Origin: a bacterium
GTDB lineage: Bacteria > Electryoneota > JAOADG01
Assembly: GCA_963681965.1 (NCBI GenBank)
Contig: OY820579.1
Span: 384,001 to 448,000, forward strand
Direction of reading: 5' to 3'
DNA length: 64,000 bases
The notes below the pieces were generated by a model that was given only the letters and a program-made list of their open reading frames with translations, was not told the DNA's origin and searched no databases. Both the position numbers and the translations under genes were made by a program. This document shows positions 57,812-64,000 of the stretch, in pieces; position 1 is the stretch's first letter, and every line of letters begins with the position of its first letter.

Positions 57812-58750
57812 CTATTCCTGAGTGAATCCGAGTACAATCCAGGAATGCGACTTCCGGCGAATCGCGACTGGACCCATTGCACGTCCCAGTTTCTTCCCTT
57901 GACCAACGAGCAACCCGGTGACGATGACTCTGCCCCCCGGATTCAATAGAGTTGGTACCGTCTGCCACCACGCCTTCAGCACATTTAAATGAATGTTGGC
58001 GAGGATCAGATCAAATTTATCGGCTTTCCCGAATTTGGTCGTGAGAATGGATCCTTCACGTACCGCCATCTTTCCCTTGAATCCGTTTCGGAGAACATTC
58101 TGACGCGCTTCCCGTACGGCATCGGCTTCAATATCGATCCCGAGACAATAGGATGCCCCTTGTGCCAGCGCGACCAATCCGAGGATTCCGGTACCACATC
58201 CAGCATCGAGTACCCGATCCCCGGTTTGCGTCCATTCGGCGGTCAGTTTGCATGCCATGCGGGTGGTTTCATGTTCGCCGGTTCCGAATGCCATGCGCGG
58301 TGGCACGACCAACCACTGCCGGCGATCCCTCGGAATCATCGAGCGCATCGGTGCAACGCCAATTCGCGGGGATAGAACAAATCGCTTCAGATCCTTTCGC
58401 CAGCGTGCGATGCTGTCGAAATCCGGCAGCTTTTCACAGGAATGTGTAATATCCGGTACCATCGGTCGGATCATGTCAATCAACTTCAGAAATCCGGGTT
58501 GGATCTTTTCCCACTCGGCTTCGGGAAATGCCGCCAACAACTCGCGCTCGATTGCCGTCTCCGGTGGGGGTTCGACACCAAATTCTTCGATACCGAAATC
58601 GGTGTCGAGATCCAATTCTCCCTCAGTACCTTTCGCTCGCTCTTCGATTCCCACGGCACCAAGTTCGATCAGTCGTTCGCCGATAATCTCTGCTAACGGT
58701 GCACTGCCAACGATGATCACTCCGATATAACTCTTAGTCGTTTTCGCCAC
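57812..58750 (-). CDS. prmA: Ribosomal protein L11 methyltransferase
   Basis: MAFGTGEHETT, LDAGCGTGIL, LANI; GTG start at 58750 with AAGGA SD. Confidence 0.88.
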   Translation of the reverse strand: MAKTTKSYIGVIIVGSAPLAEIIGERLIELGAVGIEERAKGTEGELDLDTDFGIEEFGVEPPPETAIERELLAAFPEAEWEKIQPGFLKLIDMIRPMVPDITHSCEKLPDFDSIARWRKDLKRFVLSPRIGVAPMRSMIPRDRRQWLVVPPRMAFGTGEHETTRMACKLTAEWTQTGDRVLDAGCGTGILGLVALAQGASYCLGIDIEADAVREARQNVLRNGFKGKMAVREGSILTTKFGKADKFDLILANIHLNVLKAWWQTVPTLLNPGGRVIVTGLLVGQGKKLGRAMGPVAIRRKSHSWIVLGFTQE

Positions 58751-58780
58751 GATCGCGTCCTTTAATTGCATTCGAACAGA

Positions 58781-58935
58781 TATAGTATCTCTTGAAAATA
58801 AGTTGTTATCGGTAGTCGGAGCGGATCCCCGCGTCCGCCCGCAGGAATCTTTAGTAGGTACAGACACTCTTGTCTGTACATGTTCGGCAAAGCCGAACAC
58901 CGAATCATGACAACTTATATTCAAGAACCACGATA
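58781..58935 (-). mobile_element. MITE copy 4, inverted, with an extra REP
   Basis: Same TIRs in reverse orientation; additional GTAGGTACAGACACTCTTGTCTGTAC hairpin. Confidence 0.85.
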
Positions 58936-59065
58936 ACCCACTGATATAGATAAAGGTAATGTATTCCAGAGGATTGCGCATCTGAATCCGGACCGGGTGC
59001 CTGAGGATTTGAGCATTCGACCAGTTCAATGTAAATTACGTATTGCTGAATTTTGAGGATTTGCC

Positions 59066-60727: not shown

Positions 60728-63493
60728 TTACTTTAATAGAACGATCTTCTGCGTCTTCGAAAACGCACCCGCTTGCAATCGCACAAAATATGTTCCACTC
60801 GCTAATCTCGAACCATCGATCTGCAATCGATATGTACCTGCAGTCTGATTCCGTTGCACAAATGAGCTGATTTCGCGTCCGGTAAGATCGAACAACTTTA
60901 GTTCGACAAAACCGGATTTCGGAAGCGAATACGAAAGGGTGGTAGTGGCGTTGAAGGGGTTGGGGTAATTCTGAGATAGGCTGAAATTGGTAAGTAAGGG
61001 TACGCTAAATGCTGGTACAGAAGTTATTATCCCAGAAATCGAAGTAATGAAGCCATCTCTTGAACCACTTAATGAGCTATCAATTGAGGCTGGAGCATTA
61101 GGAAAGTTGGGACTTCTAGTAAATCCACACACAAGAATGTTATTGCTATTGTCTATGCAGAGTCCATAAGGAGTTTCTATACCTGAGCCACCAAGAAAGC
61201 TACTATAAAATATTTGTGAACAATCAATATTCAATCTCGAGATAAAACAATCACGCAAGCCACCACCATAAAAACTCTGAAAAGCATCTGTAGTGATTGG
61301 AAACGAGTTGCTGGATGTCTGACCGGTTACTACAAGAGCATTGTAATTGTCAATCAGTATTTTACTTGCACTATTCGTCCCAGAATCACCCAAAAATGTA
61401 CTTGTTAAAACATGAGACAGCGTGCTATCAAGCCTAGAGACAAAACATGCAGATCCCTGAACCAGAGTGGTATCAAACGAACCAGGTGTAACTGGAAAGT
61501 TAGTACTTCCAGTAGAACCAGCAACAACAACGTTTCTGTTAGAATCTCTAATTAAATCGGATACACCATCATCTAACGAGCCGCCAAAGTACGTGCTTGA
61601 AACAAGTTGTGTTCCAATTGCACTTAAATGAGAAATGAAACCATCCATTCCACCGCTATTGACCGAAGAATAGGCACTTGGAGTCGTTGGCAAATTGTCA
61701 CTAGAGGTCCAACCACTAACAATTATCGAATTATCATTGCATTTGAGAATCGCACTGGGACAATCATATCCATTTCCACCCAAATAAGTACTATAAAGCA
61801 GAGTTGCTAAATTGTTTACATGAGCTGCAAAGCAATCATAGCTCCCCCCATTATAGGATGTATCAAAAACTCCAGTGGTAACTGGAAAATCATAGCTATT
61901 TGTATATCCGGCAACAAAGCAACCACCTAATCCATCATTGACAATTGCACTTCCAACATCGCCAGTATAATTGGTTGAGTCACCTGTAGAACCACCGAGA
62001 TAGGTACTGAATATGAGTTGTGATCCACTTGAACTAAACCTTGTTATAAATGCATTGTTGATGGGTGGAAAACCTACGCCTCTGTAACTACTTAAATTGG
62101 TGACAGGCAACGAATTGTCTCGAGTATACCCAGTGATAATTACTCCGTTAAACCCATCATTGCAAATAGCATTTGCGGAAGTAGCATTGAGAAAAGTACT
62201 ATACAGTAACTGACTTCCACTTTCAGTTATTTTAGTTACAAAACAGCAAGTATTATATGTGATAGAATCTAAGCATCCTGGTGTAAGAGGAAAGCCCTGA
62301 CCTTCAGTTGAGCCAGTTACAACTAATCCGTCACTTAAACCAGTAGCTGCGTATATGTAATCCATACTACTTCCCCCCAAATACGTACTATACACCAGTG
62401 GATCGATTCTCAGCGTCTGAGAGGCATCGTACCCATTCGGCAAATCGATCGCGAAGAGATTTTCCGACAAGAGTCTGAATTGTGCTGTGACAGCGTTTCC
62501 GCGAGCGCCATTTACGGTGGTTTGATAGGCACCCGGAATCGTCATTCGCAATTCACCGAGGGAGATGGGAAGCGACAGTTCATTCGATAATCGGAGGTCG
62601 GACACTCCTGTCCGACTCCTATTTGTGATAGAATTAATTGAGTCGACGGACAAGAGTGTCCGTCCTCCGCCTGCTATCGGCGCATCCAACCCCTCACACA
62701 CCATCTTAATTTGCTTGGGATCGGCACCGGGATGCACCACGAAATCGAATTCGAGATGGCCCTTGCTCTCATACCACTCGACATCGATTCCATTCCACAC
62801 ATCATGATACACCACGCGTGTAAAGTTCCGGCAATCCGGCGCCCACTTCGATGAGTCATTTCCGAGGAAATAATTATTGTGCCACGAAAGTTCGCCTTGT
62901 GTGTCGATCCATTTCGCTTGCGCGAAGGGTAGGTCGGAATTTATTCCGACATCCTCTTGTGTCGTGCATTTATCCGTAGGGGCGTATCGCATACGCCCTG
63001 TGGGCGCGAACGCGCCCATATTGGTTGGTGCATCTTGATCGGATAGGGGCGAATGCGATTGCCTTCGGCGAGCACTTTGTGGTTCGCCCCTACGGGAGTC
63101 GACAAATTTGAATTTGAGCGCGTGGGATTTTAATGCATATCGAGGAAGAAGGTTGCGATCCAAAGGATCAAAAGATGCGGGCGGATGCGGGGATCCGCCC
63201 CTACTGGCGTCAATGGGTTTCGTCGAATCGATCACAGACGTAACGAGGGTGACACCATCGCGCTCAAGGAACCAGGTGAAACCGTCGCGCCGCACCTCGC
63301 ACTTGTAGAGGACGGCAGAATCCCATTGTCCCCTGTTCTCGGTGAATTGGAATGGGTGCGGAAGGCGCGAGGATTGCACCGACACCGCAAATGTTTGTTG
63401 TGGGAGTAGTGAAAGCAAAAGCGATAGAGCGAAAACGAGCCTTGTCGCGGAGGCGAGTGTGCGAGTTCGCGGAATAGGATGGCGGACGTTCAT
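60728..63493 (-). CDS. Secreted SBBP (beta-propeller) repeat protein with conserved N-terminal domain and T9SS-type C-terminus
   Basis: Signal peptide after ATG 63493; FTENRGQW, NYFLGND..KW, VHPGADP, RIDPLVYSTYLGG; repeated STYLGG/GxTxSxNFPxT; NYPNPFN..QKIVLLK. Confidence 0.9.
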   Translation of the reverse strand: MNVRHPIPRTRTLASATRLVFALSLLLSLLPQQTFAVSVQSSRLPHPFQFTENRGQWDSAVLYKCEVRRDGFTWFLERDGVTLVTSVIDSTKPIDASRGGSPHPPASFDPLDRNLLPRYALKSHALKFKFVDSRRGEPQSARRRQSHSPLSDQDAPTNMGAFAPTGRMRYAPTDKCTTQEDVGINSDLPFAQAKWIDTQGELSWHNNYFLGNDSSKWAPDCRNFTRVVYHDVWNGIDVEWYESKGHLEFDFVVHPGADPKQIKMVCEGLDAPIAGGGRTLLSVDSINSITNRSRTGVSDLRLSNELSLPISLGELRMTIPGAYQTTVNGARGNAVTAQFRLLSENLFAIDLPNGYDASQTLRIDPLVYSTYLGGSSMDYIYAATGLSDGLVVTGSTEGQGFPLTPGCLDSITYNTCCFVTKITESGSQLLYSTFLNATSANAICNDGFNGVIITGYTRDNSLPVTNLSSYRGVGFPPINNAFITRFSSSGSQLIFSTYLGGSTGDSTNYTGDVGSAIVNDGLGGCFVAGYTNSYDFPVTTGVFDTSYNGGSYDCFAAHVNNLATLLYSTYLGGNGYDCPSAILKCNDNSIIVSGWTSSDNLPTTPSAYSSVNSGGMDGFISHLSAIGTQLVSSTYFGGSLDDGVSDLIRDSNRNVVVAGSTGSTNFPVTPGSFDTTLVQGSACFVSRLDSTLSHVLTSTFLGDSGTNSASKILIDNYNALVVTGQTSSNSFPITTDAFQSFYGGGLRDCFISRLNIDCSQIFYSSFLGGSGIETPYGLCIDNSNNILVCGFTRSPNFPNAPASIDSSLSGSRDGFITSISGIITSVPAFSVPLLTNFSLSQNYPNPFNATTTLSYSLPKSGFVELKLFDLTGREISSFVQRNQTAGTYRLQIDGSRLASGTYFVRLQAGAFSKTQKIVLLK
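62593..62668. repeat. In-frame inverted REP pair inside CDS
   Basis: GGAGGTCGGACACTCCTGTCCGAC ... GACGGACAAGAGTGTCCGTCCTCC. Confidence 0.85.
62929..63093. repeat. In-frame cluster of five REP-like hairpins inside CDS
   Basis: GTAGGTCGGAATTTATTCCGAC; GTAGGGGCGTATCGCATACGCCC; GGGCGCGAACGCGCCC; ATAGGGGCGAATGCGATTGCC; GGCGAGCACTTTGTGGTTCGCCCCTAC. Confidence 0.85.
63179..63204 (-). repeat. In-frame single REP inside CDS
   Basis: GTAGGGGCGGATCCCCGCATCCGCCC on minus, nearly identical to the MITE REP at 48418-48443. Confidence 0.85.
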
Positions 63494-63778
63494 GGCGGCT
63501 CCGATCAGACAGGTAGTATCATCATTATTATAATGCTGACATAGTCTGTTTACAAACAAAATGGTGTGATACTGAAAGCTGAATAACGATTCCCCCAACA
63601 GTCGTTCCACCGCTTCCCAGCAATTGCCTTTCCTGAATTCGATCATTGCGGCGGGTGACTTCTGAAGAATACCGCCACTACCGAAATTAAATGATTGTGA
63701 TGGCTTTGATCCTGAGATCGACCCTATGTCGCTGCTCCCCGATTTCGTATATTCGATCGAACTGACACAAGGAACTGT

Positions 63779-64000
63779 ATGCCCGACCGTATCGGTCAAG
63801 TAATCGTCTGGATTCTGCTGTTGCCGCCCTTTATCATGTCATTGACTCTTCACGAGTTCGGACATGCGTATGCGGCGTACCGGCTGGGTGATCCAACCGC
63901 CAAAGCGATGGGTCGCTTGACCCTGAATCCGCTCAAACATCTCGACTGGTTCGGGTTGTTGATGATGTTCATCGTCCATTTCGGCTGGGCGAAACCGGTA
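63779..64000 (+). CDS. Site-2 protease (M50 family), 3'-truncated by window; absent from ORF track
   Basis: Manual translation MPDRIGQVIVWILLLPPFIMSLTLHEFGHAYAAYRLGDPTAKAMGRLTLNPLKHLD..FGWAKPV; HExxH; AAGGA SD. Confidence 0.92.
   Translation, partial: MPDRIGQVIVWILLLPPFIMSLTLHEFGHAYAAYRLGDPTAKAMGRLTLNPLKHLDWFGLLMMFIVHFGWAKPV

Follow-up and report, generated by a model that had tools for sequence, protein, structure and literature searches.

In-frame REP-type hairpins at three loops of a secreted DUF7948 protein family in an Electryoneota bacterium

Results

A secreted-protein gene with three hairpin blocks

The window analysed here is a stretch of 64,000 nucleotides (nt) from contig OY820579.1 (assembly GCA_963681965.1, positions 384,001 to 448,000) of a bacterium in the phylum Electryoneota, whose 4.24 Mb genome is written G000 in the coordinates below. 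Near one end of the window lies a gene for a predicted secreted protein, and the N-terminal domain of that protein, DUF7948, is interrupted by three blocks of GC-rich hairpins that resemble repetitive extragenic palindromes (REPs) (Table 1). A sequence-only reading of the window had proposed that REPs were inserted in frame in this gene. The blocks are indeed present where it had put them, and the frame stays open through all three. Translation located the peptides that it had quoted, namely RGGSPHPP (63202-63179), RRGEPQSARRRQSHSPL (63094-63044), GRMRYAPT (62998-62975), VGINSDLP (62950-62927), GGRTLLSVDS (62668-62639) and SRTGVSDLR (62617-62591), and the flanking motifs HALKFKF, NYFLGND, VHPGADP and LGEL were also found at the positions given. 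Five hairpins had been counted in block 2; four are clear, but the fifth is only a weak inner stem inside the long-looped one.

The protein combines a signal peptide, the DUF7948 domain, SBBP beta-propeller repeats and a C-terminal sorting domain of type IX secretion, as recognized with Pfam and by eye. The signal peptide (residues 1-36, ending in TFA) was called by eye. DUF7948 (PF25778) matches in three separate stretches at 147 bits (cut-off 27, E 1e-42), the best of which aligns amino acids (aa) 196-271 with profile positions 74-149 of 214. Por_Secre_tail scores 43.5 bits (cut-off 27, E 4.1e-11) and one SBBP repeat 21.9 bits (cut-off 20.5), so that all three lie above the Pfam gathering thresholds. 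The nearest named relatives are Caldithrix. A Foldseek comparison of the DUF7948 model with the PDB returned nothing at E <= 0.001, the best hits being N-terminal domains of GH97 enzymes (E 0.013, TM 0.23). There is a sharp step in G+C content within 60728-63493, from 50-56% in the DUF7948 part (the N-terminal kilobase) to 37-42% in the SBBP propeller part.

Table 1. Features of the secreted-protein gene and its hairpin blocks (window coordinates)
Feature	Position	Strand	Description
Secreted-protein gene	60728..63493	minus	within open frame 60728..63799; Met start at 63493 likely; 921 aa
DUF7948 N-terminal domain	62384..63352	minus	protein aa 48-370; beta-rich core broken by three insert loops (alignment A1, AlphaFold)
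Block 1 (site A)	63178..63204	minus	27-nt GTAG-tagged REP, stem GGGCGGAT, read (S)RGGSPHPP(A); arms 63179-63186 / 63193-63200
Block 2, upper part (site B)	62972..63097	minus	126-nt REP cluster; gap of the same size in insert-free paralogs
Block 2 upper, long-looped GTAG palindrome	63044-63092	minus	arms 63044-63053 / 63083-63092; 29-nt loop
Block 2 upper, hairpin TGGGCGCG	63001-63018	minus	arms 63001-63008 / 63011-63018
Block 2 upper, REP GGGCGTAT	62980-62998	minus	CTAC foot; arms 62980-62987 / 62991-62998
Block 2, lower part, REP GTCGGAAT	62921..62958	minus	CTAC foot; read DVGINSDL; arms 62925-62940 / 62943-62958
Block 3 (site C)	62592..62669	minus	REPIN-like inverted doublet, GGAGG...CCTCC feet; net +75 nt; read GGGRTLLSVDSINSITNRSRTGVSDL

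Block 1 and both parts of block 2 carry a GTAG/CTAC tag at one end (GTAGGGGCGGAT..., GTAGGGGCGAA..., ...ATACGCCCCTAC and ...ATTCCGACCTAC), and the GTAG foot of block 1 is on the coding strand. Block 3 lacks this tag, having GGAGG/CCTCC feet instead. Its arms (62592-62614 and 62647-62669) are 23 nt long, 91% complementary and separated by a 32-nt spacer, and it contains two hairpins with 8-bp stems. Inverted REPs with a short spacer that fold as a single long hairpin are the architecture of a REPIN (REP doublet forming a hairpin), and block 3 has it. Folded as single-stranded DNA against 200 shuffles, the small units give z scores of -2.5, -2.6, -3.8 and -2.3, and the entire block 3 forms one long hairpin of -26.7 kcal/mol (z -8.4, equalled by 0 of 200 shuffles).

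Repeat families across the genome

The stem and loop units of the blocks recur in the genome 17, 110, 59, 7, 24, 18 and 16 times. The genome also contains 2626 perfect hairpins (8-bp stem, 2-8 nt loop), compared with 643 that arose in a single first-order Markov simulation of the same length. Given these counts, the hairpin units are not a product of chance. The frequent hairpin families of the genome have GTAG...CTAC feet. From families with at least five perfect copies we obtained, after merging, a set of 696 REP hairpins. Long frames are avoided: 97 of the 696 lie deep in open frames (with at least 300 nt of open frame on either side), compared with 2473 of 5000 random sites. Within DUF7948 frames, which make up 1.9% of the genome, there are 105.

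Members of the hairpin families of blocks 1 and 2 are scattered over the genome, mainly between genes, in agreement with the REP identity proposed for them. By BLAST, 61 of 64 matches of block 1 and 66 of 83 matches of the GTCGGAAT unit fall outside the paralogs described below, and pattern counts give 108 copies of GTCGGAAT, 52 of GGGCGTAT and 16 of GGGCGGAT (17, 12 and 1 of them within paralog frames). Blocks 1 and 2 are 90-100% identical to intergenic copies over 30-52 nt, a likeness as close as the one to each other. The same proposal fails for block 3, which is not a genome-wide REP: 18 of its 20 BLAST matches are in paralog frames, and of the other two, one belongs to a broken paralog and the last is a lone hairpin (G000:C1:3770586). 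Thus a dispersed extragenic population tied to one REP-associated tyrosine transposase (RAYT), as in REPINs, was not seen for block 3, whose copies occupy site C of paralogs apart from that lone hairpin. The core of its loop, GACACTC[CT]TGTC, also occurs in an intergenic GTAG REP family, GTACAGAC, that has 16 copies, none in paralogs.

One GTACAGAC GTAG REP lies in the window itself, at 58858-58879, where it and other hairpins occur in a stop-to-stop frame (57812-59029, minus strand) upstream of a PrmA domain that starts at aa 108 of the frame. This region is probably a non-coding 5' leader. REPs at least 150 nt from both ends occur in 54 frames outside the paralog family, and 14 of these (the 13 that reach 200 aa, plus one repeated frame of 152 aa) were scanned with Pfam. 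There was no convincing case of a REP inside a Pfam domain among the 14; two have a domain (a BNR/type IX secretion system protein and PrmA), and in both the REP is near the frame start, before the domain. The repeated 152-aa frame has nine identical copies (G000:C1:256591-257050 and eight more), each with a CTTCGTCG hairpin, and its Pfam scan was negative; it may be an unrecognised mobile element. At G000:C1:345429-346362, four GGGAGGGC REPs at 84-nt spacing immediately precede a RAYT-like fragment (NF047646, 41.5 bits); they share one open frame, for which the Pfam scan gave no match.

Insertions coincide with three loops of the domain

Relative to insert-free paralogs and homologues, the gaps coincide with the hairpin blocks and keep the frame. 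Aligned as DNA to the insert-free paralog at G000:C1:2951250 (p2951250), the window gene is longer at the three blocks, by exactly 27 nt, 126 nt and a net 75 nt, the site C junction having no unique placement. Block 1 corresponds to a 27-nt gap in both p2951250 and p1275785. From FTENKGQ to IDPLVYST the domain measures 236-426 aa in 22 paralogs. Hairpin-free homologues are shorter, as expected of an insertion: across 25 other genomes the median length of the domain is 239 aa (range 222-278), from the 28 of 80 fetched loci that passed three-anchor extraction, versus 323 aa here, and 20 of these 25 genomes have no perfect 8-bp hairpin in it. Alignment A1 (24 sequences) gives the same picture, with length differences at the inserts.

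The AlphaFold model of the domain, built on A1, has a mean predicted local distance difference test (pLDDT) score of 75.2, with the blocks of the beta core at about 87-97. Only three segments fall below 50, at domain residues 52-68, 91-139 and 232-254 (protein aa 99-115, 138-186 and 279-301). The inserts, at aa 98-105, 134-189 and 276-301, coincide with these three low-confidence loops, which supports the placement in loops between conserved motifs suggested from sequence.

A family of paralogs with varying cassettes

The 63 DUF7948 matches in the genome resolve into 27 frames, 21 of which are open for at least 850 aa, the other six being short or broken. The length of the core is almost invariant among them, and the sites vary: site A measures 25-82 aa, site B between 18 or 32 and 149 aa, and site C between 24-26 and 88 aa. 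Most of the 27 frames have differing combinations of cassettes, which are REPs or miniature inverted-repeat transposable elements, at the same three loops. Site A holds REPs read as VGAVREPPV, RGGxPxPP, GAYGIRP and others, and its alleles sit at differing nucleotide positions. Site B has the block-2 cluster with or without a 219-nt composite, the modules of which have 89 partial matches elsewhere; the lower REP of block 2, GTCGGAAT, is kept in most close paralogs and decayed in p2951250. At site C, block 3 is present in 16 paralogs of the alignment, two further REPIN-like doublets with the same architecture in three, and long clusters in two; the doublets at this site are of at least three kinds. 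Both stop-free frames of the GTAG palindromes are in use. Since one and the same loop contains different REP or REPIN units from paralog to paralog, and in other genera as well, the view that such elements landed there repeatedly is upheld.

In the paralog at G000:C1:204389-207310, site A has a VGAVREPPV-type REP with a nested in-frame insertion of 18 nt, read VGATPPPLGVREPPV. Paralogs have near-identical N-terminal domains, yet their C-terminal parts belong to different subfamilies, which suggests a mosaic history. Logan contigs from four runs cover the unique C-terminal part and the upstream flank within 60728-63800 without differences. They break throughout the repeated N-terminal domain, where the joints (for example, from 62970 to 63105 across 8 intervening letters) match alleles of other paralogs and do not reflect polymorphism.

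Inserts diverge unlike the host genes

Pairwise identity in the core is 0.94-0.96, 0.97-0.98 and 0.64-0.70 at codon positions 1, 2 and 3 (21-23 paralogs). Since positions 1 and 2 are conserved relative to position 3, the host proteins appear constrained, and judging from this substitution pattern the core is under purifying selection, a mark of expressed proteins. The inserts show no such periodicity. Their identities by codon position are 0.93/0.94/0.96 for block 3 (16 paralogs), 0.96/0.94/0.94 for the block-2 cluster (seven paralogs) and 0.98/1.00/0.98 for the VGAVREPPV unit (six paralogs). They are therefore not evolving as coding sequence and are under no constraint at the protein level.

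Among three paralogs with the same alleles, the third-position difference is 0.27, 0.36 and 0.23 in core stretches versus 0.058 in insert B and 0.026 in insert C, and the shift occurs within a codon or two of the element ends. Overall, the inserts are 5-10 times less diverged than the flanking synonymous sites. Because third-position differences resume so close to the element ends, homologous gene conversion is unlikely as the cause of the low divergence, except perhaps in tracts bounded by the elements.

RAYT genes and their REPs

A search for RAYT genes found two, each adjoined by a REP family. Their products, of 157 and 162 aa, score 94.3 and 78.9 bits against NCBIfam NF047646 (cut-off 80), and both sequences contain HUH-like HVH and Y..NP motifs. 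The 157-aa RAYT, the sole one queried, matches E. coli TnpA-REP (PDB 4er8) at E 3.1e-8, and is a distant relative of it. One of the genes is flanked by 2+2 GGTCAGAA REPs and the other by two GTCGGAAT REPs, the type that forms the lower part of block 2. Judging from flanking REPs only, the 157-aa RAYT may be active, with the REPs beside it as its cognates. The two genes (G000:C1:526681-527085 and 529684-530088, outside the window) are 3 kb apart and about 3.4 kb from a DUF7948 paralog frame (520355-523297). The NF047646 model marks five RAYT-like places in the source genome and has matches in 28 of the 31 genomes of the phylum sample.

Related genomes of the phylum

DUF7948 matches number 32 in a genome of the same genus (G001) and 39 in one of the same family (G003), both with GTAG hairpins of their own in the same loops; one domain in G003 has 503 aa. 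The hairpins in the loops are multi-copy repeats of the respective genomes, with pattern hits of 44 in G003, 74 in G014 and 24 in G026, each against 0 in a reversed control. These three genomes represent three taxonomic families. In G026, one hairpin lies 36-39 nt before six of the seven listed DUF7948 matches. This hairpin, TCCCCCCACTCTGTGGGGGGA (for example, at C2:522668-522688), is at site B of at least six DUF7948 paralogs, a parallel to block 3 in the source genome.

Discussion

The overall interpretation of the sequence-only reading, that REPs repeatedly landed in frame in loops of this protein, is supported. We consider it likely that the blocks are REP-type mobile hairpins (single GTAG REPs, a REP cluster and a REPIN-like doublet), that they were inserted in frame in permissive loops of DUF7948 and are translated, that these loops serve as landing zones across the family, and that RAYTs drive the process. 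In this scenario, REPs would insert in three structurally permissive loops and be translated as extra, probably unstructured, loop segments. The same loops would act as landing zones across the 27 DUF7948 frames and in related genera, and only frame-keeping insertions in tolerant loops would survive. An existing REP probably attracts further REPs, so that clusters could grow, and the turnover of cassettes, or their copying from one paralog to another as element-bounded units, may outpace the divergence of the genes. As agents, the RAYT (HUH Y1) transposases of the genome are most likely; we suspect that they mobilise the elements.

We favour the explanation that the low divergence of the inserts reflects cassettes that arrived, or were copied between paralogs, long after the genes had diverged. 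It is favoured because blocks 1 and 2 match intergenic copies as well as they match each other, because spacers are conserved like stems, and because different elements share the same loops.

Several points weigh against this interpretation. At two of the five RAYT-like places, and at a third viewed in passing, no GGGCG-type REPs like those of blocks 1 and 2 were seen beside the RAYT. Block 3 adjoins no RAYT either, and, given that it has neither a GTAG tag nor an intergenic population, it is not attributable to one. The paralogs compared were chosen by shared insert allele, which biases the insert identities somewhat upward, and low divergence with sharp boundaries is equally compatible with selection on DNA or RNA hairpins. 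The paralog tree, built from 552 core columns for 16 of the 27, has the shape of a star, one of 13 inner branches being starred and terminal branches measuring about 0.1, and gains and losses therefore cannot be counted or ordered on it. The low pLDDT of the inserts may be partly due to the few alignment rows that bear them. Finally, we infer both the translation of the inserts and the expression of the gene from sequence.

A bolder version of the scenario is that the DUF7948 loops are conserved landing pads onto which RAYT-type transposases copy element-bounded cassettes between diverged paralogs, independently in several families of the phylum. We regard this version as tentative, and on balance doubtful. 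If true, transposase-driven in-frame grafting of loops would keep reshuffling the loops exposed by a type IX-secreted family, at a pace above that of point mutation.

About as doubtful is the alternative that the inserts are old, inherited parts of the family, neither recent nor moving, and near-identical because the hairpins act at the DNA or RNA level, for example as a regulatory or protein-binding structure. In its favour, block 3 is nearly absent beyond the family, and its stems and loops are invariant in 16 paralogs; five spacer columns vary (identity 0.44-0.59), and some sister paralogs have a spacer haplotype in common. The placement of the G026 hairpin ahead of most listed DUF7948 matches fits it as well. 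However, most of the spacer columns outside the stems are also conserved, with third positions no freer than first and second ones. Blocks 1 and 2 resemble intergenic copies as closely as one another, the same loop holds different elements in different paralogs, and one close paralog is without the inserts at sites A and C.

Less likely still is that the loops encoded by REPs are themselves selected, the cell varying the exposed loops of a secreted or surface family so as to diversify them combinatorially for binding or evasion. The family concerned is large and type IX-secreted, cassette combinations differ even among paralogs with near-identical C-terminal parts, and the same loops have been struck in three taxonomic families of the phylum. 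Against this, first and second codon positions of the inserts change as often as third ones, leaving no protein-level signature, and the peptides are merely what the palindromes spell in their two stop-free frames. The insert peptides are also predicted with low confidence by AlphaFold, and the fold search for DUF7948 found no match at its E threshold.

That the region is not translated as read, the paralogs being decaying pseudogenes or the true start lying downstream of the hairpin blocks, is very improbable: six of the 27 frames are short or broken, but the core shows strong purifying selection to either side of each insert, the inserts are spanned by the DUF7948 match (profile positions 1-214 in three stretches), and the 21 long frames stay open through at least a dozen different indels, all multiples of three.

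In-frame REPs tend to be regarded as rare accidents that befall unrelated genes here and there, and classical REPINs are extragenic and present in hundreds of copies. The REPIN/RAYT system of Pseudomonas was reportedly described by Bertels and Rainey. Block 3 and the other site C alleles resemble that system, being inverted REP doublets with a short spacer that form one long hairpin, in a genome with REP-flanked RAYT genes. They differ from it in that block 3 is read in frame, has GGAGG feet and occurs in 16-17 copies at one site of one gene family.

The repeated landing of REP-type hairpins in coding sequence, which we prefer as the explanation, is of a known kind, given the intragenic REPs described in passages of Di Nocera, De Gregorio and Rocco (2013; PMC3733652) and the palindromic elements of Rickettsia. 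According to those passages, unrelated genes contain GTAG and CGTC REPs, among them dimers and clusters that code for 43-82 aa. The likeness extends to GTAG palindromes of mostly intergenic families, to their in-frame occurrence as single units, dimers and clusters, and to REP-flanked RAYT genes. Rickettsia palindromic elements, according to passages of PMC10969869 and PMC3733652, are about 150 bp long and lie in frame, at positions compatible with the fold, in many unrelated open reading frames that stay functional. Only the mode, in-frame palindromic insertion, is common to them and the blocks described here, which are GTAG REPs and REPIN-like doublets of 20-80 bp in a genome with RAYT genes.

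Whereas the inserts in the passages of PMC3733652 are spread among unrelated genes, many with roles in replication and repair, those found here are concentrated in one family of secreted paralogs. What is new is this density, together with the three fixed loops, the combinatorial cassettes, the deficit of divergence and the recurrence across the phylum. A limited full-text search, which is no proof of absence, found no literature on REP cassettes concentrated in one paralogous secreted family.

For annotators, the finding is a warning that long low-complexity loops of such proteins are derived from repeats. In this organism, about 15% of the REP hairpins of the genome have been absorbed by one secreted protein family, in three loops. 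The family thus offers a natural system, with many replicate host genes, for the movement of REPs and REPINs, the definition of their targets, and the tolerance of a beta domain for foreign loop sequence.

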